Shown here: one piece after another, positions 18,302 through 32,841 of the stretch
How positions within the stretch are numbered: position 1 is the first letter of the stretch
Layout of the letters: each line of letters starts with the position of its first letter
Assembly: GCA_039545335.1 (NCBI GenBank)
Contig: BCIN01000003.1
Coordinates: 558,001-622,000 of the forward strand
Length of the DNA: 64,000 bases
Origin: Kondoa subrosea
Taxonomy: Eukaryota
Direction: 5' to 3'
Position numbers and translations under genes: made by a program
The notes under the pieces: generated by a model
What the model was told of the DNA's origin: nothing
Seen by the model: the letters and a program-made list of their open reading frames with translations, nothing else
The model's database searches: none

Positions 18302-18377
18302 CAGTGGCCATGCGGCGAGAGTAGTAGCTGTGCAAAGCAGCGCAAAATGTAGAATACACTCCATACAGTCATTAGAG

Positions 18378-19562
18378 AAAGTCAAAACTACTTGTAGCAA
18401 GCGGGAAAGCCAATGATGCTCGAAATGAAGGTTGTTTATTGCAACACAGAGGATTAATCACACACGATAAAAGTTTCTATAATGAAAGCCAACACAACAA
18501 CAAAATACTTTAATGCGAAAAGAGCATGATGCTTCCAAAATGTTTAAGTGAGATCAATGACCGTGTCCACCTCCACCACTGCTCGACTCCTTCTCGTTTA
18601 ATAACGCAACCTCTGTTGTAACAAATCAGAATTTCGTTCAATCAGAAAACAGTCAAGAAGAAAAACGCACGATCGACGAATGACCAACTGTCCGCTTCTT
18701 TGTTGTGCACAGCGGTGAGTCTTTGAATTTCCGCAGCGAAATCTTCGAAGACAGTCTAAAATAGGGAGAGGAGTCAGCAAGACAGCTTTGCATTACAGTA
18801 CTTCGACTCACGTTCTTCTTGCCCTTTTCTCTGCGACCGAGGTTAGCCAACCATGGAATAGCGTTGAGGATAGTGTAGATCTGAGGATGAAGTCAGCTCT
18901 GTTTCAGGCAAGAACGGAAAGACAACTCACCAAAGCGCAAATAACAACGACACCGAACGAGTAGATCCAGATTCTCACGACGGTGACAATATCAGTCCAG
19001 CCTCCACGTGGTGCAGTAAGTTCATTGCGTTGTGGTGTGCCAGCGAGCCATCCGAACAAGGTGAAGATGGAAGCGAGAATATCGACACCAAGAATGGCAC
19101 CTGCCGATGAGGAGTTAATATAGTACTAAAAGCGCTCTCAAGATGACGTACCAGTCAATTGCCAAGATGGTAATGTTCCTCCACCACGAGTAACAAAGAT
19201 CAACCAGTTCTCAGTAAGGGCGACTTCCAAGAACAAGATCGATTGGACGTTGCCGAAGTTCTGGACAACACCGTGACCGCCCTGTTTCTCGACGCGTTAG
19301 CACACAACGAGAACTAATCAAGAGAATCAACGTACGAAGATGATACCTTTGGCGTAACCTTGCTCATCGCCGACGAAGAGAGTACCACGCAAGATCCAGG
19401 TTCCCATAGCGAGCAAAACACCCATGATAGAGGAGATAATCCAGACTTAAGGAAGAAGACTCATTAGCGGTGCTCGATGGAAGGCCGAAAACAGAGACTC
19501 ACTCTTAGGTTGTTGCCATTCGACAGGTTGTTTGGCGACGGGAGCGTTATCGTAAGCCTATT
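18378..19562 (-). repeat. Left arm of ~1.2-kb inverted repeat (PMA1 3' exons, introns and 3'UTR)
   Basis: Reverse complement aligns colinearly with 31245-32428. Confidence 0.95.
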
Positions 19563-22500
19563 AAGTCGAGTGAGCAGAGGTGCCATTGTAAGCTCTGCAA
19601 CTGTTGAGCTTACAATGGCAATTGTTGCCACATCGGCGAAGATAGCCAAGAAGACAATCAAGTCGACTCGGATAACTTCGTTGAGGATGAGGATCGACAA
19701 GGTCAAGTAGATTTCCAAGTGCAAGCACAGAGCGATACGGTATTCGATGTAAGCTAGAGAGGAGGATTGAGCAAGAGTCGATTTCAAAAACAGATAGAGC
19801 TCACCCTTCATTCTGTGGAAAATTTCACGAGATACTTTGATGGAAGTAATGATGGTAGATAGACCTTCGTCAAGGAAGACGACATCGGCAGCAGCACGAG
19901 CAGCGTCAGTGGCACCCTAAACAGAACAAATCAGTGAAAACTAAATCCCCAAGATAAAGAAGCTCACTTCGACGGCAATACCGCAATCAGCTCGCTTGAG
20001 TGAAGGAGCATCGTTGGTACCATCACCAGTCATGGCGACTAAGTGATGACGGTCTTGCAAGAGTTCGACGACTTGGTACTTGTGTTCAGGGTAAACTTCA
20101 CCGAAACCATCGGCAGCTTCAACGAAATCGTGAATGGTGGAACCAGACATGCCGTCGCCTCCGGAAATGAGCTTCTGCGAATCGTAGACTTTGGTACCGA
20201 CACCGAGTTGCTTGCAAGTTTCGATAGCGATGGCTACAGCGTCACCGGTTAACATCTTGACCTTGATTCCCAAAACACCGGCTTCACGGATGGTGGAAGC
20301 AGTGTCCCCACGAGGAGGGTCGAACATAGGCAAGAGACCAAGAAGCTTCCATTTGCCATCTTCGTTTAGAGCAACACCCAAAGATCTGAAACCTCGCTTG
20401 GCGAAAGTCATAGTGCGAGCACGGTAAGAGTCGGCTTCTTCCTTTGGAGGTTGGCAAAGCTTGAGAATAGCGTTTGGTGCACCCTTGGCAGCGATGTATT
20501 GTTTACCGTTCTTTGTGACTTCAGCAGTGATACGCTTGGAGACAGGGTCGAAAGGAGTGAACTTTTGAGTTGTCCAGCCTTCACGGAGATGATCTTGAGC
20601 TCGTGGGTACTTGGCAAGAGTTTGGATAGTGACTTTGTCGATAGGATCAAGAGATTTGACAGAGTGGGATGAAGCCAATGCAGCAACCGCCATCATCCAT
20701 TCCATCTCAACACCTTCACACACATATGGTTCGTCAATAGAAAGCTTGTTTGCTGTGAGTGTTCCTGTCTTGTCTGAGCAAAGAATGTCGACACCGGCCA
20801 AAGCTTCAATGGCGGTAAGCTTTTGAACAATAGCTTGTCTTTTTGCAAGGTAAGCAGCTCCGACGGCGAGAGTGGTAGTAGTGACGCAAGGAAGACCGAC
20901 TGGTACACCGATGATCAAGAAGATAAGAGAGTAGACGAGCAAGTTGTTATCTTTAGGTCTGGTAATGCCAACTGATCTGAAGAAACCACCGATCCAGACG
21001 ATGAGGAGCCATACAACGACGAAGACCAGAAGAGCTGTTCCGATTTGAGTCATGACAATTTGGAAATGACCCTTTCGGTTTTCGCCAGAAACGAGAGCTG
21101 CAGTTTTACCGACGAAAGTAGATTTTGCGGTTTCGGTGACCAACATGTAACATTCACCTCGCTTGCAACCGGTAGTGAAGAAGAGGACATCGCCAACGTG
21201 CTTGTCAACAGCGAGAGATTCACCTGAAAGTACGTATTGAGATTAGATTGCGCAAGAGTCAAAGGTATGAGAACTCACCAGTGATACCAGATTGATCAGC
21301 TGACACAATTGGTGGCCCTCTGTCAACTCCTTCTTCATCGTGATCTTCCTTTTCGTTGTCTGCCATGGCGGCCTTTCGGCGAGCGTTTTCAATACCTTGC
21401 AAGATGCGACGAGCAGCAGATCCATCCTTGTCTTCGTAGTCGGCAAGGACTTTGCCATCAGCTGGAATAGTTTGACCGTCCTGAAGAGAGGAAAAATTAG
21501 AATAGGTACGGATGAACCTTGAAAGCAAAGAAACTAACAGAGACGATGACAATATCACCTGGCACAATTTCTCGTGCTTCCATTTCATGCTCTTGACCAT
21601 TTCTGATGACTGTTGCTCTGAGCGCGATACCAGACTTGAGTTGTTCTACGATATCTCCAGCAGCCTTTTCTTGATACCAACCGACGAAGGCGTTCTATGA
21701 CTCGGCATAAAAGGCTGTACGAGTATGCAGTGCACGGACAGCGCTTACAAGGAATAGAATACCAATAATCACACCGAAATCTGAGGTGGACAAGAAAAGA
21801 ATAAGCAAGAAGATCTCGACATTTCTATTTTTAGAGGACTGACCAATCCAATCTTCCAAACCTGCAGCCAGTACTACTGCAATTTCCATGACGTATAGAA
21901 TAGGACCCTGCAGAGTTGAGAAACAGGAGGTCAGAAAAGCAGCATTCGAAAGAGCAAGAAAACATACAGTGAAGAAGGAAAGGAACTTGACAAACATGTT
22001 TTCCCTCTTTGATTCGAGCTCGTTCCAGCCTGCAAGAGCTCTCCTCTTTTTGACTTCTTCTTCCGAAAGACCCCTTCTCATGTCAGTATCGAGCCTTTGT
22101 ATAATGGAGTAAGCATGTTTCATGTTAAACAAACAAACAAAATGCACTCACCATGATTCCGGAGTCTTGAAGGCAGATGAGGCAGCGACAACGTTGCCAT
22201 CCTTGTCGATGGTAACTTTGTTTTTCTTCCAAGGCATGTACCAGACTCTTTTGTATTCAGTCTTGTTTCCACCTTCTTCTTCATCGCCACCACCTGAGCG
22301 GCGAGCGTTGGCAGAATCTTGAATGTATTGAAGAAGGTTGGAGTATTCTTGGTTGCCAGCATCGGGAGCAGACTCATGTTTGCCGTAATCTCCGTTGTGA
22401 GCGGTGCCAGCTCGGGTCTCGTCTGATGAAGGATGTGAGCGATCAGAAGAGGAAGAATGGACTGGTGCTGCTTTTTCTTCAAATTCAGGTAAACGCGGTG

Positions 22501-22636
22501 CAGCTTGACGAGTGGCAACTTGAGGTTGAGCCACTATGTGTTGAGGCGTTCCATGGATATTCTGGTGAGCAACGTTGCCTTGGGAGACGAATTCGTCACC
22601 AACGACGTTGTTGTGAGGTTGATAGCCTTGAGACAT
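18554..22636 (-). CDS. PMA1: Plasma-membrane H+-ATPase (P3A), full-length copy
   Basis: [25 protein letters not shown] phosphorylation site, [34 protein letters not shown]; spliced C-terminus ...[22 protein letters not shown]. Confidence 0.97.
19581..19620. repeat. Perfect 15-bp inverted repeat with 10-nt spacer spanning a PMA1 5' splice site
   Basis: tgccattgtaagctc-tgcaactgtt-gagcttacaatggca; arms are exact reverse complements. Confidence 0.95.
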
Positions 22637-23875
22637 TATTTGAGATAAGGTGCGGAGAAGCGAGAAATATTAGTGTCTGTAGGAGATATAAATCAGGCTG
22701 CCGTCGATGGGCAAGGGCAGCAGTGAGACGAACAAAGTAGGATGTATTAGTATACTTAGTAGCCCGAAGACCGATTAGCTGTACTTGATGTTTCGAAGTC
22801 AAGCGGGAAGAAAAGGAGACACAAGGTTCAAGAGGGACGAAAGAGACGTGAGGGCAAGAGCCTCGTTAGACACTTGCAGCTATGTAGACTGTGCGGTGTC
22901 TGAGGGCGGCCGAGGGTCTTGCTGGTGAGAGTGAGAAAGGTGGTGGAAGAGAGAAGACGAAATCAAGGCTAGGAAAGGAAGTACTTCCGGCTAAGCCGTC
23001 TTTGTTGATTTTCGAACTTCGCTCAGAAAAAAACAACACAAGCTTCCTGAGAAGATACAAAGCTCTTCAATCTGACCAGCCAAGTAGACGCTTTGCAGTC
23101 TGCTTTGCAATATCCGCAGATCATCACATCCACAGCAAAGCGCTGTAATTTTGTCCCCAAAGACTTTAATAGACTCATTTTCGGCATCTCGAAAATTCTT
23201 ATCCATTTCCAGTGCTACTCCATCTACTGCATCGTACTTGTAATTCTCTCATCCCTCTTTACATGTAATGATTCTGCCCATCTTATCTTTGCGTGCTATA
23301 ATTCCGGCCGAAGGCTCAGGACGTGGCAGAGACTTTTTCCACATAATCTCGGTCTACATTGTTTCTCGACCTGTAGTCACGGATAAATTCCTGACTACTG
23401 ATACGATAAGGTGGGCAAGCGTTTCTTCCGTGCTACATGAAATTTTCTTTCTAGCCATCTCCTTTTCCGTGCTCGCTTCTAGCCATCTTCTGCCATGGCA
23501 GTGGACTGTGAGTCATCAACATTTTGACACCGGCCGTGACATCTTCCTTCTCATCTCCTGTCTCTGAAACCTGAAGATGATAACTCGATACGCTGACTTC
23601 GGCAGAAACATAATACAGGAGCTCCTTCAGATCCTTCGGCGATCGATCATAATATGAGATAGGTCAAAGCTGGGCGTCTTAGGTAGACTTGGCTTGCCAG
23701 ATCAAGGAAAGGTAAAAGAGATGCACGCGACGCGTCTTGTTTAATGTAATTTTATGCGAGAGTACAATATCTCTATAGCCTTCGTTGATTGCTGTAAACG
23801 CAATAGTACTTCTCTGTCTGTTTGACTCGCTTGACATCGACTACAATGTTGATTTGCACATCCTCACTTTCAACC

Positions 23876-25067
23876 ATGACTCAAATTAAGAAAGTAGGCG
23901 TACTAGGCGCAACAGGCATGCTTCCGTTCTAAAGATGCCACGCAGGCACTCATTCTTGCAAACAGGCACTGTCGGACAGCGCTTTATAGTGCTATTGGCT
24001 GCACATCCATATTTTAAATTGTCTGTTCTTGGCGCATCACCTCGCTCAGCAGGTAAAGCCTACGGATCCAGCGTCAACTGGAAACAGACTGTACCGATAC
24101 CTGAAGCTGCTCAAGGCTTGATTATCAAAGAATGCAAGGCTGAAGAGTTCAAAGATTGCGATGTTGTCTTTTCTGGCTTGGATCACGACGTAGCGGGTCC
24201 AATAGGTCAGTCTCGAGTCTACATTTTTGTACTCTTCTGTACTCAAGTGTTGTACATCTGACAGAGGACGAATTCAGGAAAGCGGAGCTGGCAGTCTTTA
24301 GCAATGCGAAAAACTTTCGTCGAGATCCTTTGGTCCCTCTTATCGTTCCTCTGGTCAACACAGATCATTTCTCTATCTTACCTCATCAGCAATCTCAACT
24401 TTCCTTGAAGAAAGGTTTCATCATTACAAACGCAAATTGTTCCACTACTGGACTGGTTGTACCGCTCAAAGCACTAGAAGATGCTTTCGGTCCTCTAGAT
24501 ACAATCATCTGCACTACTTTGCAAGCTGTATCAGGTGCTGGCTATCCTGGTGTTTCAGTCATCGATATCATGGATAACGTAGTTCCTTACATTGGAGGAG
24601 AAGAAGAGAAGATTGAATGGGAAACCTCAAAGATCTTAGGCGGGCTATCTTCAGATTCTACCTCTTTCGATCTCAGACAATCTGAACCAATCAAAGTTTC
24701 TGCGACATGTACAAGAGTACCAGTGCTGGATGGTCATACTGGAGTTGTTTCTGTCAAATTCAAGAAACAACCTGCACCTTCTATAGAAGAAATCAACAAA
24801 GTGTTTAGAAATTATACTTGCGAAGCTCAGAAATTGGGTTGTCCTTCAGCACCGAAACAAGCTATCGTAGTACATGAGCAACCAGATAGACCGCAACCGA
24901 GGTTGGACAGGTATTATCAGGATGGAGCGGGAGTGAGCGTGGGAAGAGTGAGAGCTTGTCCGGTCATGGATATCAAGTTTGTCTTGCTTTCTAACAATGT
25001 CTCGATTGGCGCGGCTACATCAAGTATCATCAACGCGGAGTATGCGGTTGCAAAGGGGATTGTTTAG
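23876..25067 (+). CDS. HOM2: Aspartate-semialdehyde dehydrogenase
   Basis: VGVLGATGTVGQRF, SNAKNFR, NANCSTTG (catalytic Cys), QAVSGAG, CTRVPVLDGH, PDRPQPRLDR. Confidence 0.96.
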
Positions 25068-25369
25068 AGCGGGCAAAAAAAACCTTCAGTAAATGAAAAT
25101 GGCCAGCTTGCATTAGAACATAAATCATCTTGATTGAGTCGATCGAAGAGACAATGTACCCAATGTAATCTGGGGGACAGCGATAGTCAAGCAATTCAAT
25201 CGAATCTAGTAAATCCACAGCATGGGGCAGGAAACAACATTAGGCCGTCCCTGCTACTACTCCCTCGCTTTGGACAAATAGTTCCTTGGAGGTGACACTG
25301 GTCGCAAAGATGCTGACGCAATTGCAGTACCACGCTCGTCTTCAGTTTGAAATTCAGCTGCCGAAGGTG

Positions 25370-26238
25370 TTAGACCGTGCAAAGGATCCCCATCAACAGA
25401 GGCGTACCAATGACTTCACCGTCCTCAACAAGACAGGCCGTTCTCTTCCATCCTTCCTGAAGGACGATGGCAAATGCATTATCAATCCGATTTGGTGCCA
25501 AGTTGGCCAAAGCCTCTCCGCACTTGACAAGAGCTTCCGCGCGACGACTTACAGGAAGACCGACCGACCAACGACTGACCATTCTACAGTGTAGTGCCTG
25601 TACAGCGTGAGAGCTGTATTTGGTGATTAAGTCTTCTGCCGCGACATTATTGAAATGCTTCGTAGCGTCGGCAATCTTCCCTATAATCCTTTGTTCGAAG
25701 ATGTTGGGAGCAGCGTATCTTCTGTGAGCCCATAGAATGTGCAACATGATTCCTGTCCATTCGCACCAGATCTTATGAACAGCTTGAATGTCTGCAGAGT
25801 GCTTGGGCTGCTCTTGGACGTAGGCCAGAATGAAGTTGATGTTCTCAACCTTGGCGTGAACATGAGTCCAGGCTAGCTCAAGGCTCTCTTTGAATTTATC
25901 TTTCGGCCAGTCAGTATGGTTGATCAGATGCTGAACCAGATCGAAGCAGGTCACTATCTATAAGTGAGCAGCAGTATATGACTGCAGATACGAGAGCAGG
26001 CTTACTATAGGGGTGATTGTTCGGACCTTGTAAACCGTCAATTTCCGCAGTATTATGCACCGGTTTGTTGGCATGATCGTAGATCATGGGAGCGTCGCCC
26101 AAGGGGTGTAGACCCGTTGGTTGAACATGGTGAAGACCTCGTGGCGCATATTCACTGACCAAAGATACTAGTTCAGAGATCAGCCCGATCAAAAGATAAA
26201 ACGATCCACGGACAGTGCGTCGAAGGAGTATTCGCCAT
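25370..26238 (-). CDS. Orphan hypothetical protein (~250 aa, 3 exons)
   Basis: Spliced MANTPSTH/LSLVSEYAPRG...SKPAL/IVTCFDLVQHLINH...; GT-AG introns with branch points; upstream TATA box. Confidence 0.55.
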
Positions 26239-26333
26239 GTTATGAAGACAGATGACAAAGAAGCACAAATTGTATGATTCGAGCCAAATGAATGCGGGAG
26301 CGAGTAAAGAGAGAGGAAGATAGATACCGACTC

Positions 26334-26340
26334 TTTTATA
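26334..26340 (-). promoter_or_regulatory. Canonical TATA box (TATAAAA) about 95 nt upstream of the orphan gene ATG
   Basis: + strand ttttata = TATAAAA on -, followed by a CT-rich leader. Confidence 0.5.
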
Positions 26341-27355
26341 GACAATCTGGCAAGAAGACAAACTCGGATAACATTGGGTACCTAGTTCAGAGATGATCTT
26401 CCAGAAGACAACTTCCTCAAGCTTGATCAAAGATGTAAATTTTTCCACAAAAGCGAATGAAGCCAAAAGTTCGCGTTCCAGTGCTAAGCGCAATGACCGA
26501 GTCTGATTGAAAAAGAAAAGAGATAGGACTTGGTCGATATGCGAGAAGATTTGTTCTCGTCGAGCTTCTTGTACAACTGCATTGTACCTTTATTACAGAG
26601 ATGGAAGCTTCCTGTCCAGAAATAGACTGATCAGGAAGAGAGAAGGGGCAAGCCTAAGTCGAGATTTATAGCACGGAAGGTAGAGCTAAAAGAGGATCTC
26701 CAGCTTATCTTTCGATCCAGCTCATTCGGAAGATCAGCTGGACAGACGCAGGACTCCAAGGTTTCTGGGTATTGTAGAGGTCTTCGGACTTTGGAGCAGC
26801 AAAGGATGTCTCATCATATAGGCGGCTTCAATTCTCCTTTGCTTTCCAAGTTGAACCGCACGTTTCTGCGAAATCGATTCAGCGATGTCTCAGTGACTCG
26901 AAGTCGAATTACCTCTGGTAATTTGACCACAGCTCCGTTACGGCAGCGGTATTCTCGTTGTGCTTGTTGATCTCCTGCAGCAAAAGGTCAGCTCGCTTCG
27001 AATTGGCAGAAGATTACTCACCTCGAGGGATCGCGTCAATTCGACCATGGCTTCATTGAGCTTCTCCTATTCCGGTCTTCAGCAAAGGCCGGACCATACG
27101 AATGCGCGTTACGAACTACATTGCCTATCATTCTCGATAGCAACACGACCTTCACATTGAAGCCAAATCAGCGATATGCCCAGTGCATCCCTCTCGGACT
27201 CACCTGCTGCTCCTCATAAGGATTATCCATCCGCTACGAGCCACTGTACAGCTTGATCTTGGTGGTCCTTCCCTTAGCTCCGCGATAAACAAATGGCAAT
27301 TGCGCGATTGCTGCATGCATGATATTTTTCCTGGTTCTCTCAAACCAGACTCAAG

Positions 27356-30300
27356 ATGCCGCTGCTTAAGGGAAACGATGCAGTCTGTAAGCAGCATCGA
27401 GCTAGTACAGGGCCGGAGCTCACAGACTATCAGTGCGACATGCCACAGAGCAATCTTCTGCACTCTTTGTGTTTGATGGATTCTCATCTCAAGTTGGCTC
27501 GCTACCCAAATCTACAAGTCATTTCAAGATCGAAACTCGATCTGGTTCATCCGCAGCTGTTCTTGGCTACATTCGATCTTTGGGCGGAAAATCATCTGCC
27601 GATGTCAAGCCAATCACTATTCTCTGCACGCCTACTTCTCTCATCGAGTTGACCGCTGTCTTATCAGCTGCTCTGCCTAATGCATCTGCAAGGCCACCTC
27701 TAGTCATTCAAGTTGCTTGCTGTGAACCTGCAATCGAAAGCAAGAGAGAAGATGAATTGCCTTCTCTGCAGCGTTTGCCTGCTGTTGCTTCTCTATTAGC
27801 AGCCTTGCCTTGCTCAAAAGTTTCAGGCAAAAACAACTTTACTCCAACGGTGATTCTGTCCGGTGGATCTGGTGAAGGTGTTCAAGAGATTGCAGATGGT
27901 CTAAAAGCGGTTGAGCATCTGGTCGCCAAAGGATCGGACGTCATTCATGCTTGGGAAGCTGTTGTAGCAGGACAAGAGTTGTCATCGTCTTTGGCTTCAG
28001 CCGAATCATCTGGAATGGAAGTTGAATACTCAAGCAATGAGGAAAGGAAGCCTCTATCTGAAAGCGATGTCAAGTCCATCTTGAACACCGACTTTTTCAG
28101 CTACCACGGACCAGCAAATCCAAACAAGGCCATCGTTTTACCTTCTTCCCTTCACTCAGCAAACGCTTTAGCTGCTTTATCCGCTGCTACCTCTACTGGT
28201 CTAATCATTGCTCGAGTATTACGACCCTGGTCTTCTGAACAACTTAACGCCGCTATTCCAGCCTCAGCCAAAGAAGTTCATGTACTTGAAGGTTCTTTCA
28301 ACGGCAAAGCCTTCTACTTTGACGTCCTAACTGCTATCCAAGAAGGCACCACTCCTCGCCGAGTCAAGCTCCTCACTTTACCAGCTGATGAAGTTTGGAC
28401 TGTGGCCGATTGGAACCAACGTTTCGCTCGATGGGATTCTGGTGAAGCTAAACCTGCTCCTCCTGCTCCCCTTTTATCGAGCAACAGCAAGTTGGCCGTC
28501 TTTTGGTCACCTGATGAAGGCAAAACAGCTGGTTTGGCTGATCGATTAGCTGCTCAATTCACCAATCAAGGTGGAGTTGAGACAAGGTTGTTGAATGAAT
28601 ACGACAACTTCTCTGGCAAAGAAGGTGGCTTGCAAAGGTCTACTCTGTTGCTGTCGCCTGCCGATGCAGAGAAGAAAGGTGTTCAGCATTCACTCAGTGC
28701 TTTGGTGGAAACCTCTTCTCCTGGTTTGCTCTTCCTTTCTGGACCGCCTTCCATTCTTGCTGCATACAGTCCTTTGGTTACCATTGATATCAACACTCAA
28801 GTCATTTTCTCCAATTCTTCTTGGACTCCAGAAGAATATGGCGAAAAACTCAATGCTGCGGATAAATCCACTTTGATCGCTCGATCTGGTGAAGGCAAGC
28901 TTTGGACTCTGGATGTCGCTTCAGTTGTTTCCGCTTCTGGTCTACTGGCAAGTGATGCACTGGTCGAAGAAGCTGCTTTCTTCCTTCTCTACTACAACTC
29001 TTTGCCAGCTGAAGAAGCTACTTCAACCATTGCCAAATTATTGACTCTTTCCCCTGCTGGCGGAGAATGGTCAGAAGAAGCTTTCAAAGGTTTGGTAGAA
29101 CATACGAGAAACGCTTTGAAACAAATAAAGATGGTTCCCTACGAAGGTGAAGGTCAACCAGCAGCTGCAGCAGAAGTAGACACTGCTTCGCCCGAATCAA
29201 TCAATATCTTGCCTACTCATATCCTTGGCAATGCTATCGGTCCAAACAAGAAAAAGTCTTTCCCTGATGCTGAGCCTACTGCACCACCTGCTTGGCATAT
29301 CGCTGCTAAACAACTTCTCTTCTCTGAAGCTTACGCAACTCAAGTAGATGCCACTCGTCCAGATTTGCCGGAAGAGAACTTCGTCCTCACTGTCACCGAG
29401 AACCGTCGTCTAACTCCATTAGATTACGATCGCAATGTCTTCCACCTTGAACTTTCTACCAAAGGAACAGGACTGAAATACGCTGTTGGTGAAGCTCTTG
29501 GTGTTCATGGTTTCAATGATGAGACCGAAGTAAAAGAGTTCATCGAATGGTACGGTTTGGATCCCGATGCAGTGGTCACTTTGCCCGACAGAGAACATCC
29601 TCATCTCAAATCGGAAGCAAGAACCGTTTTCCAAATCTTCCAGCAGAATTTGGATATCTTTGGTAAACCTGGCAAAGCTTTCTACGAGGCTTTGTCGAAA
29701 GTAGCGACCAACAGAGAAGAGTCAAGACATTTGAGATTCATTGGTTCAGCTGAAGGAAGTGCCACATTCAAAAAATGGTCCGATGTTGACACCGTCACCT
29801 ATGTCGATGTTCTAAAAGCTTTCCCAAGCACAAAAGCCAAACTTGGTTTGAGTGGTCTGTTGAGAGAAGTACCGATGATCAAACCTCGCCATTACTCTAT
29901 TGCAAGCAGTCAGAACTTTGTTGGCGATAGTGTGCATTTATTGGTGGTTACCGTTGACTGGATGACTCCTTCAGGTAAGGCTTGCGCTTGCTTTGGGACT
30001 TATATGTCAAGCGGCTAACGGCATTACAGAGGTCACACGATTCGGTCAATGTACTCGCTATTTAGCAAAACTAAATATTGGCGACAAAGTTATGGTTTCC
30101 GTCAAACCTTCCGTTATGAAGCTTCCACCTCGCGATACTCAGCCAGTCATTATGGCTGGTCTTGGTACAGGGTACGTCTTCCTTCTTTAATCAGTCTAAG
30201 CACACTGCTAACTTTGATCGCAGGGCTGCACCTTTCCGTGCTTTCATCCAAGAAAGAGAATGGCAGCGGAACCAGGGCAAAGAGATCGGTCCTTTGCTTT

Positions 30301-30898
30301 ACTATTTCGGATCTCGATATTCGGGAAAAGAGTACTTGTATGGGTGGGTCTCAAATATCAAATAGCCGAGAATCTTGCTCACTTTTGGTGCAGAGAGGAA
30401 ATCGAAGCCTGGTTGCAAGATGGTATTCTCACACATGCTGGTCTTGCTTTCTCGCGAGACACAAACAAGAAGGTGTTACATTTCTCATCGACTGTAAATC
30501 GGCGTTCATCATGAATTATGCAGGTCTATATCCAGAATAAGATGCAAGAGGACGGTAAGCTCCTCGCAGACATGATGGACGATGGTGCTTTCTACCTTTG
30601 CGGTCGTAAGTTCCGTTCTGCAGTCTACACTAATCTAGCTGATCTTGCACGCAAAGCAACATGGCCAGTTCCGGGGAGGTCTCCCTCAAAAAGTGCTGCG
30701 CGTCCGTTCTGACCTTTGTGTGCCCTAACAGATGTCTACAACGCATTACACGATTCACTCAAAAAGCATCGCGGCAAATCGGATGAAGAGGCTAAGGATG
30801 CTATTGAGCAATGGAAGGAGGACGAGCGCTACATCTTAGAGGGTATGTTTAACCCGCTACAAGTGTCACACATTCTAATGCGTTATACAGTATATTAG
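27356..30898 (+). CDS. MET10: Sulfite reductase (NADPH) flavoprotein alpha subunit
   Basis: PFOR-like N-terminal region (FSYHGP, RVLRPWS), ENRRLTPLDYDRNVFH, KPRHYSIASS, MAGLGTGAAPFRAF, YFGSR, AFSRD, FYLCG, C-terminal EVY*. Confidence 0.94.
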
Positions 30899-31244
30899 GC
30901 GAATTGTACTTGTTTTCGGTTGATAGACATGTGGTACTTTATTATGCGTACATTGAATGCTCACTGTGGCGCCTGTATCTCTCCGTGAGTTACCAGCTCT
31001 GTGTCGTTCGAGCTGTCCTTCTTTGTTTGCTCCGATAAGGTCATCATCCGGCCGAGACTTCAGTCTAGGCGCATAGCCATGATGAATGCAAGGCTAGCCG
31101 GTATTGTAGAAGATTTGCCTTGTTTTGTTGATTCTTGTTCTTCATTCAAATTGTCCGCTTGACTTGATTCTCTTCTTGGCTATCTCCATTGAACACAAGC
31201 TTCTCCCCTTTCTTCCCCTCCATCGACTTCTAGTGGCCAATCGG

Positions 31245-32428
31245 ATAGACCTGCGATAACGCTCCTGTCGCCAACAATCTGTCGAATGGCAACAACCTAA
31301 GTGAGTCTCTGTTTTCGGCCTTTCGTCGAGCATTGCTGATGAGTCTTCTCCTTCAAGTTTGGATTATTTCCTCTATCATGGGTGTTCTGCTCGCTATGGG
31401 AACCTGGATCTTGCGTGGTACTCTCTTCGTCGGCGATGAGCAAGGTTATGCCAAAGGTATCATCTTCGTACGTCGATTCTCTGCAAAGAGCTCGCTTTGT
31501 GCTAATGTGTCGAGTATAGGGTGGTCACGGTGTTGTCCAAAACTTCGGCAACGTTCAATCGATCTTGTTCTTGGAAGTCGCCCTCACTGAGAACTGGTTG
31601 ATCTTCGTTACTCGTGGTGGAGGAACATTACCATCTTGGCAATTGACTGGTACGTCACCTTAAGCGCGTTTTTAGTATCAAAGTAACCCCTCAGCTGCAG
31701 GTGCCATTCTTGGTGTCGATATTCTCGCTTCTATCTTCACCTTGTTCGGATGGCTCGCTGGCACACCACAACGCAATGAAATTACTGCACCACGGGGAGG
31801 CTGGACTGACATTGTCACCGTCGTGAGAATCTGGATCTACTCGTTCGGTGTTGTTGTCATTTGCGCTTTGGTGAGTTTCCTTTCCGTTTTTTCTTTCCAT
31901 TCATCAAGGCTGACTTCATCCTCAGATCTACACTATTCTCAACGCTATTGCATGGTTGGCTAATCTCGGTCGCAGAGAAAAGGGCAAGAAGAACACCGTC
32001 TTCGAAGACTGTACGTTTTTGATGCTCAGATGTGCTGTTTCTATCCTGATTAATATTATCTTTGATAGTCGCTGCGGAGATTCAACGTCTCACTGCTGTG
32101 CACAACAAAGAAGCGGACAGTTGGTCATTCGTCGATCGTGCGGTTTTCTTCTCCACTGTTTTCCGATTGACCGAAATTCTGATTTGCTACAACAGAGGTT
32201 GCGTTATTAAACGAGAAGGAGTCGAGCAGCGGTGAAGGTGGACACGGTCATTGATCTCACTTAAACGTGTTGGGAGCATTAAGCTCTTTTCGCATTAAAG
32301 TATTTTGTTGTTATGTTGGCTTTCATTATAGAAACTTTTATCGTGTGTAATTAATCCTCTGTGTTGCAATAAACAACCTTCATTTCGAGCATCATTGGTT
32401 TTGCCACTTATTCAAAATAGCTTTGACT
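31245..32428 (+). repeat. Right arm of inverted repeat: duplicated PMA1 3' end including 3'UTR with AATAAA
   Basis: Colinear inverted match to 18378-19562, exons highly similar, introns more diverged. Confidence 0.95.
31249..32254 (+). other. Headless PMA1 3' module (last transmembrane helices plus C-terminal tail); intact reading frame, no 5' half in cis
   Basis: Spliced [20 protein letters not shown]...[14 protein letters not shown]...[11 protein letters not shown]...GEGGHGH*; all GT-AG sites retained; upstream DNA is the MET10 3' region, not ATPase sequence. Confidence 0.85.
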
Positions 32429-32841
32429 ATCTTTGAAGCAGGGGTTAGCGTTGAGCATCACATGAACTAAAGAATTGGATCAAACATAGTGGATCTGGAT
32501 TTCGCGATGAATTCCGAGCAAGTGAATAGAACGGATGCATGCGACCACGGCAAGCACAGGGAATGATGACACCGCATCCCATTCAATGAGATGTTCGACA
32601 GAAAGAAGGAAAGCATGAGGAAAAGAAAAAGATACTTGTATATGAGAATGCAAACTTCCATGCTAAATAGAACATCTCTAAAGGCGTTTACTTCCTGTTC
32701 CAGGGGCTGTACCAAACCCTTTCCAAAAATCGTTCTAGCTCAGCCAGGATCTTTCACAAATAAGAAGAGGAGATGAAGGGAAAATGTAGCAAATTCGTCG
32801 TTTTCATGATTTCGTTTGCTCCGGAAACGCCGCAATGGTCT

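Follow-up and report, generated by a model that had tools for sequence, protein, structure and literature searches.

Kondoa subrosea (GCA_039545335.1) carries, within 64,000 nucleotides (nt) of contig BCIN01000003.1 (positions 558,001 to 622,000 of the forward strand; this whole stretch is called the window, and positions are counted from its first letter), a complete gene for the plasma-membrane H+-ATPase PMA1 and a partial, inverted copy of the 3' end of the same gene, referred to here as the right copy. Six exons of this copy have kept their reading frame and evolve under strong purifying selection, while the truncated end next to them has decayed. Our leading reading, held tentatively and with a little less than even confidence, is that the right copy could be a partial duplicate born in an inversion, with its six exons kept as a coding unit, most simply as a separate small gene.

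An inverted copy of the PMA1 3' end

The inverted-repeat search paired the PMA1 3' end with positions 31245-32432 in 5 collinear blocks that are 84-97% complementary (Table 1). In the pairwise alignment these blocks merge into a single arm of ~1185 nt with ~92% identity (8% divergence). A repeat of such length and identity cannot have arisen by chance, and the search found no other repeat family in 15000-36000. The exon models place 7 exons in each arm, named e1 to e7 in the left arm, which belongs to PMA1, and e1' to e7' in the right arm, which is flanked by the 3' ends of two genes, one MET10-like and one PSA1-like. The initial annotation had described most of this geometry, and it stands: repeats and alignment bear out that the 3' end of PMA1 recurs inverted and that the two arms bracket the promoter and 5' half of the gene in a segment of ~11.7 kb. 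The further claim that the right copy has no 5' half in cis agrees with tblastn of a 1083-residue relative (P0002) against all 64 kb, where PMA1-like coding sequence appears only at 18657-22633 and 31158-32154; such a half is in fact impossible because only ~350 nt separate the MET10 stop from the right arm.

Six intact exons with no stops had also been reported, as the exon models now confirm for e2'-e7'. The accompanying statement that all splice sites are kept needs to be qualified, since the AG...GT signals are intact at every boundary of e2'-e7' but intron 5 has moved by 16 nt. All 5 introns between e2' and e7' are GT...AG, and introns measure 50-58 nt; intron lengths of 51-58 nt have been retained in the copy. 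In the left message the e5/e6 boundary comes 16 nt sooner, and after splicing the two copies specify identical residues. The left intron 5 still begins with sequence that resembles the moved 16 nt. Two sites in this stretch can be polarised; the left copy has the derived state at both, and the shift therefore probably took place in the working gene. We read it as intron sliding over a distance not divisible by three bases, a rare and datable event.

Purifying selection on e2'-e7'

Over 206 codons, the Nei-Gojobori method gives 21.0 synonymous and 4.0 non-synonymous steps between the copies (pS 0.146, pN 0.008, omega 0.052), and the proteins differ at 3 residues (L/I, P/A and G/E). This reproduces the earlier count of 22 synonymous and 3 non-synonymous differences, and the accompanying claim that the copy is not neutrally decaying gains in strength. 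Non-coding sites of the arm differ at 59 of 445 positions (0.133), a value close to the synonymous one. With the observed transition/transversion ratio of 1.27, a right copy evolving neutrally since the split would be expected to have collected ~45 substitutions in 618 coding nt, of which ~33 would be non-synonymous, together with ~1.8 stops, against at most 4 and 0 observed (Poisson P = 2.6e-10). Under the weakest null, where the right copy is neutral and the left copy fully constrained, 58% of the differences should be non-synonymous, while only 4 of 25 are (P = 2.2e-5). With an omega of 0.052, no indel and no stop, e2'-e7' are not what is seen in a neutral pseudogene, whose features are found only in e1' and in the remnant upstream of it. 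Exon e2' has 0 non-synonymous changes, against ~6 estimated for neutral evolution, and is as constrained as the distal exons.

The coding sequences of the two copies differ by 4.0% (25 of 618 sites), and both are equally distant from the outgroup transcripts L001-L003, which are contigs free of introns (131-140 of 609 sites, 21.5-23%). By these comparisons the duplication is lineage-specific. When the 25 differences are polarised, 10 are usable, the derived state being in the right copy at 3 and in the left copy at 7, and there is no acceleration of the right copy; the other 15 are ambiguous, the synonymous sites of the outgroup being saturated. Taken by itself, the omega of the right-copy lineage is not significant (1 non-synonymous among 3, P = 0.14).

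Gene conversion was considered as the cause of the low omega and rejected. No conversion tract was found, the longest identical run being 61 nt (shuffle P = 0.065). According to our own population-genetic reasoning, conversion with a neutral partner gives an omega near 0.5-1 and not 0.05, because exchange removes synonymous differences whichever way it runs, and deleterious ones only when it runs one way. An indirect effect of selection, transmitted by occasional conversion or flipping, was also set aside: it needs an exchange rate above ~1/Ne (Ne, effective population size), and the neutral divergence of 13-15% implies a per-site exchange of only a few times the mutation rate.

A decayed inner boundary

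Weak homology runs inward from the right arm to ~31100, including an island with 27 of 28 identical positions at ~31160-31187 that is a remnant of the exon for helices M5/M6. The upstream remnant has 30 substitutions of mixed type (8 of 30 are C>T) and ~28 gap events. The rewritten intron in this boundary holds a CCAAT motif and a 22-nt pyrimidine tract (31200-31221), the longest of the 8 found in the window. Tract and motif hint at a promoter; since only 3 of the 7 other tracts precede an open reading frame (ORF) on the same strand, the tract is not a reliable promoter mark. A single cluster of mutations associated with a break was tried as an explanation of the boundary and rejected, given the mixed spectrum and the numerous separate indels.

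Exon e1' has 2 frameshifts, 3 non-synonymous and 2 synonymous changes in 51 nt, and two of the non-synonymous changes fall in the conserved YDNAP and PVEW stretches. These 5 disabling or non-synonymous events contrast with 4 in the 621 nt of e2'-e7' (Fisher P = 2e-4). The non-synonymous divergence of e1' (~3 in ~39 sites) is roughly the per-lineage neutral value of 0.073. The contrast between e1' and e2'-e7' indicates that the truncated end has been decaying for roughly the whole life of the duplicate, and that the six adjoining exons have not.

Coding potential of the right copy

An ATG at 31339, in the former intron 1, is open and in frame into e2'; the left copy has TAA in that part of the intron. 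The ORF starting at this ATG has 213 codons, no internal stop and four hydrophobic segments; a further in-frame ATG lies at 31378 in a strong context (A at -3, G at +4). As a predicted stand-alone gene, the right copy thus has a start, splice signals, a stop and a poly(A) signal. Pfam gave no match for its ORF. The right copy encodes the equivalents of P0002 residues ~879-1073 only, with residues 844-879 surviving as a decayed trace, and the predicted product, devoid of the catalytic A, P and N domains and of helices M1-M6, cannot be a pump on its own. The equivalent region of another relative (P0001) aligns to residues 795-917 of the 918-residue yeast Pma1 structure (7vh5), that is, to the last helices and the regulatory tail. 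Based on helix numbering, a start just before M7 would presumably give a bundle with an even number of helices, leaving both ends in the cytosol.

The 3' untranslated region (UTR) was copied as well, and in either copy it matches that of the relative L001 at 86 of 108 positions. For the PMA1 3'UTR (18376-18553 on the minus strand, 32255-32432 on the plus strand), this between-species match is above what is expected for silent sites. The outer boundary of the arms lies only ~20-40 nt past the likely poly(A) site.

Three 190-residue Fusarium proteins (P0015, P0021 and P0035) were considered as a possible separate short family and rejected as gene-call fragments. They are near-identical to the C-termini of full-length Fusarium PMA1 (P0047 and P0069) and correspond to the ORF of the last PMA1 exon, read from its first Met. 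Their names, "hypothetical" or "MARVEL domain" protein, are naming artefacts.

Independent contigs and read depth

Contigs were built independently from two DNA runs (X1 and X2) of one sample, which is probably the source of the assembly, and total ~19 Mb per run. In both runs they connect all four arm ends with unique flanks at single-copy depth (~55x in X1, ~141x in X2). Contigs from the MET10 side continue without mismatch into the first ~170 nt of the right arm (31245-31417), private frameshifts included, and those from the PSA1 side reach its last 64 nt (32369-32432). Haplotype mis-assembly, for which a check of read depth had been proposed, is thus contradicted: the right copy is not a collapsed haplotype, because the joins between arm ends and unique flanks are supported by independent contigs at single-copy depth. 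That the right copy is an assembly or haplotype artefact and no separate locus is extremely unlikely on these grounds, even if the only runs found come from a single sample that is probably the one assembled.

Within the arms the contigs stop, at shared runs of at least 31 nt. Some chimeric contigs of 304 nt (32095-32398) were also found, in which left-type and right-type letters swap exactly at shared runs of 31-42 nt and whose depth is intermediate (67 versus 55 in X1, 188 versus 141 in X2). They were rejected as recombinants and read as artefacts of graph assembly, since the switches fall on shared runs.

The 5' two-thirds of PMA1, with ~200 nt upstream of its start (20265-22837), are represented in both runs by contigs of 300-450 nt, while the contigs flanking this region are 8-250 kb long. 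Its depth is raised (up to 80 versus 55, and 228 versus 141), and alternative letters occur at 20844, 20985 and 21002.

Origin and fate of the right copy

The anatomy of the repeat fits that left by an inversion with staggered breaks: inverted duplicates of unique sequence lie at the ends of a segment, and one of them completes a gene. We suggest that such an inversion of the ~11.7-kb segment created the right arm in the same event. The stretch between two offset nicks would have ended up at both ends of the inverted segment, once within a complete gene and once as a fragment. The fragment would have stayed at the original site beside PSA1, and the complete PMA1 would have moved with the inverted segment, from a predicted ancestral order of Gemin2, MET10(-), unknown(+), ASD(-), PMA1(+), PSA1(-). 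Since a staggered-break inversion, an origin that the initial annotation had not raised, could account for the anatomy, no switching system would be needed. The inner end of the fragment would then have decayed freely, and the last six exons, with their introns, stop and 3'UTR, would have been held by purifying selection equal in strength to that acting on PMA1. As frame, splice signals, stop, conserved 3'UTR and AATAAA are all kept, the fragment would have to be translated, with a start at ATG 31339 or 31378. The predicted product is a protein of 200-213 residues with helices M7-M10 and the cytosolic regulatory tail, and it may associate with or modulate the Pma1 hexamer, a function that is our guess. 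The transcription of the right copy, its start codon, its function and its origin by inversion are all things we infer from these features.

Several points weigh against a separate small gene. The P to A change falls on a proline conserved in 5 of the 5 relatives examined, and could represent an early relaxation of constraint. Constraint at the level of the parent gene is predicted by use inside a full-length pump, and new truncated genes often evolve faster. The context of ATG 31339 is poor (C at -3) and a promoter for the right copy is not demonstrable, this ATG being only ~440 nt from the MET10 stop. A weaker point comes from the search for a stand-alone homologue with the putative first exon, carried out in a protein database that excludes the organism's own proteins: the 2 of 7 candidates that passed (P0002 and P0003) are both full-length PMA1. 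The broken contigs and variants over 20265-22837 suggest further PMA1-like sequence elsewhere in the genome, which could be the true source of the right copy. Finally, all the evidence comes from one genome.

Such a source would lead to a different history, in which the differences between the arms arose while both were working full-length genes and the right copy is a young pseudogene, left by an inverted full paralogue that was later truncated or donated recently by a diverged paralogue or allele elsewhere. A dead relic of this kind would explain the omega of 0.05, the intact splice sites and the displaced intron with no new function; the broken contigs, raised depth and variant letters over 20265-22837 are as expected from a further PMA1-like copy, and the loss of the conserved proline points the same way. 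We nevertheless consider it unlikely, if a serious contender, given the age of the truncated end. The frameshifts and non-synonymous changes of e1' and the ~28 gap events of the upstream remnant adjoin 621 coding nt with no indel and at most 4 non-synonymous steps, the boundary has a mixed spectrum with no single clustered event, and tblastn found no other PMA1-like sequence within the window. The Fisher test on e1' and e2'-e7' (P = 2e-4) disfavours the simpler alternative offered in the initial annotation, a complete paralogue that recently lost its 5' half, since the truncated end has decayed for about as long as the duplicate has existed. The right-copy exons could also be alternative 3' exons of MET10, reached by read-through, which would fuse a flavoprotein to four membrane helices. 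Both are on the same strand, the MET10 stop (30896-30898) is only 460 nt upstream of e2', and the last MET10 donor (after 30842) shares phase 1 with the e2' acceptor, which puts the join in frame. This fusion seems very improbable: a phase match has a one-in-three chance, an intron of 515 nt would be required where 50-58 nt is the measured size, and the terminal V-Y micro-exon would be lost, in a flavoprotein family where the C-terminal aromatic residue matters.

The remaining alternatives treat the right copy as a second 3' end for PMA1, through the flip-flop or trans-splicing mechanism proposed in the initial annotation, which is not supported; the arms are 8% diverged overall and 13-15% at neutral sites. 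If recurrent recombination between the arms inverted the inner segment, each 3' module would serve PMA1 in turn. Wherever a crossover falls 3' of e1', PMA1 stays in frame whichever way the segment lies; the copy is as constrained as its parent gene; and divergence is lowest in intron 1 and e2', near the inner edge, where the longest identical run (61 nt) is also found. A crossover hot spot confined to intron 1/e2' would fit the uniform constraint and leave the rest unhomogenised. The repeats of known systems are homogenised, whereas these arms, with 92% overall identity, are not near-identical: non-coding sites differ by 13.3% and synonymous sites by 14.6%, no conversion tract is seen, and the 61-nt run is not longer than shuffling gives (P = 0.065). 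Crossovers spread along the arm would not predict an e2' as constrained as the distal exons, and only 3 residues would distinguish the two protein isoforms. Neither an alternative junction nor a change of strand occurs in the contigs, which end inside the arms, with both breaks and chimeras on shared runs of at least 31 nt, as graph assembly would produce. In yeast mitosis, inverted repeats with ~9% mismatch recombine two to three orders of magnitude less often. With such an effect passive flipping would be too rare (well below 1/Ne) to purge an idle copy, and we regard flip-flop as improbable. In trans-splicing, the PMA1 e1 donor would be joined in trans to the e2' acceptor of a right-arm transcript. 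The intact e2' acceptor and downstream splice signals, beside a dispensable e1' that decayed, produce a constraint pattern that suits this route no less than a stand-alone gene. Only 3 residues would separate the product from PMA1, and we know of no established nuclear exon-swapping trans-splicing of the mod(mdg4) kind in fungi, which leaves trans-splicing with a next to negligible chance. Both routes would explain why a PMA1-like constraint starts exactly at e2', and the confined-crossover version and trans-splicing escape the arguments from divergence and from e2' constraint. The broader possibility that PMA1 uses the right copy as a functioning alternative 3' module, by inversions confined to intron 1/e2' or by trans-splicing to e2', retains a small chance of being correct.

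Full-length PMA1 and neighbouring genes

The left gene has its start codon near 22636 and its stop at 18554-18556. In tblastn it covers residues 3-1072 of P0002 over 22633-18657 with 67-91% identity, and its exons match Pfam Cation_ATPase_N (PF00690), E1-E2_ATPase (PF00122) and Hydrolase (PF00702), all above the cut-off. By domains and full-length similarity it is a P-type IIIA plasma-membrane H+-ATPase. An N-terminal extension of ~165 residues, rich in Q/H/S, precedes the conserved core (22148-22636, minus strand) and is common to the environmental relatives P0002 and P0003. In this intron-rich fungus the nearest PMA1 relatives are environmental transcripts (89-93% identity on one exon), and the nearest named exons are those of the basidiomycete yeasts Malassezia yamatoensis (75%) and Cryptotrichosporon argae (73%).

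Among the neighbours (Table 1), the two ORFs at 25370-26381 have no Pfam match. The MET10-like gene ends in a phase-1 intron (30843-30890) followed by an 8-nt coding micro-exon with the last two residues and the stop. A search with a MET10 exon gave 4 hits, the best at 91% and the next at 50%.

Table 1. Repeat blocks, arms, exons and genes, in window positions.
Feature	Positions	Strand	Description or evidence
SIP1/Gemin2-like gene	ends ~18301	+	
Full-length PMA1	18554-22636	-	P-type plasma-membrane H+-ATPase, ~1080 residues, many short introns; tblastn, Pfam
Repeat block 1	18376-18739 / 32069-32432	inverted	
Repeat block 2	18812-18897 / 31909-31994	inverted	
Repeat block 3	18910-19283 / 31518-31891	inverted	
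Repeat block 4	19321-19503 / 31300-31482	inverted	
Repeat block 5	19490-19532 / 31273-31315	inverted	
Left arm	18376-19560	-	PMA1 e1-e7, introns and 178 nt past the stop; repeat search, alignment, exon models
Left exons e1-e4	19557-19503, 19445-19336, 19281-19152, 19100-18931	-	
Left exons e5-e7	18880-18812, 18755-18671, 18612-18554	-	
Inter-arm segment	19561-31244	.	~11.7 kb; PMA1 5' four-fifths and promoter (-), ASD, unknown gene, MET10-like
Aspartate-semialdehyde dehydrogenase (ASD)		+	Inside the inter-arm segment
Unknown gene	25370-26381	-	ORFs of 195 and 156 residues between ASD and MET10
MET10-like sulfite reductase flavoprotein	stop 30896-30898	+	
Decayed inner boundary	31095-31299	+	M5/M6 exon remnant, rewritten intron, frameshifted e1'
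Right arm	31245-32432	+	Partial inverted copy, ~92% identical to left arm; repeat search, alignment
Right-copy e1'	31249-31299	+	Frameshifted (1 nt, then 2 nt lost)
Putative first coding exon of stand-alone ORF	31339-31467	+	ATG 31339 in former intron 1
Right-copy e2', e3', e4'	31358-31467, 31520-31649, 31701-31870	+	
Right-copy e5', e6', e7' with stop	31926-32010, 32069-32137, 32196-32254	+	
e3'-e7' with four short introns	31520-32254	+	Splice sites intact; encode M8-M10 and C-terminal regulatory tail
Right-copy intron 5	32011-32068	+	16 nt downstream of the left-copy position (left, 18811-18756)
Copied 3'UTR	32255-32432	+	AATAAA at 32368-32373; 9.6% of sites differ from left copy
PSA1-like GDP-mannose pyrophosphorylase	stop 32865	-	Convergent with right arm

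Implications and comparison with known systems

If expressed, the right copy would be a natural case in which the "support" module (M7-M10) of a P-type ATPase and its autoinhibitory tail form a separate protein, a tool for the pump-independent role of this module (hexamer assembly, tail-mediated regulation, lipid contacts), and a clean case of an inversion by-product recruited as a gene instead of decaying. Were the module instead attached to PMA1 by inversion or trans-splicing, an essential housekeeping gene would be varied in a way without precedent. An unseen paralogue as the source would make it an ordinary young pseudogene.

In Drosophila mod(mdg4), a large array of alternative 3' modules encodes different domains and trans-splicing was shown by cDNA. 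The right copy resembles these modules in its opposite-strand 3' exons with intact acceptors and no 5' half in cis; it differs in being a single putative module, nearly identical to the cis one. In the 24-kb flip/flop region of Saccharomyces chromosome XIV, the repeats are 97.6% identical and evolve in concert (Salzberg et al. 2022, PLoS Genet, PMC9731477). As in that region and in the MAT flip/flops of Ogataea/Komagataella, gene-bearing inverted repeats here bracket an invertible segment in the 12-24-kb range. Those flip/flops have homogenised, near-identical repeats of 2-4 kb, with both orientations observed, and either whole genes lie in the repeats or the switch represses genes, whereas our arms are 1.2 kb long and diverged, one orientation is known, and the arm is part of an essential gene.

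The closest parallel for the anatomy comes from Drosophila, where 17 of 29 inversions carry inverted duplications, left by staggered breaks, of sequence that is otherwise unique and mostly genic; these are up to ~1.9 kb long, with a mean identity of ~88% (Ranz et al. 2007, PLoS Biol, PMC1885836). The size of our arms is within this range and their 92% identity is near that mean; one copy lies in an intact gene and the other is a fragment, and no transposon or prior repeat is needed. What sets the right copy apart from those duplicates is the strong purifying selection on 206 codons, decay being limited to the inner 200 nt.

A single literature search found no precedent for a truncated partial duplication of PMA1; truncated duplicates that are retained are known from other genes. 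In humans, the truncated fragment SRGAP2C reportedly acts by binding its oligomeric parent protein. In Triticeae, a conserved partial gene duplication has reportedly kept its truncated copy (PMC6092874). The right copy is like both cases in that a truncated copy would be kept by selection instead of decaying, and unlike them in being a predicted gene and in coming from a P-type ATPase, as its C-terminal membrane module.

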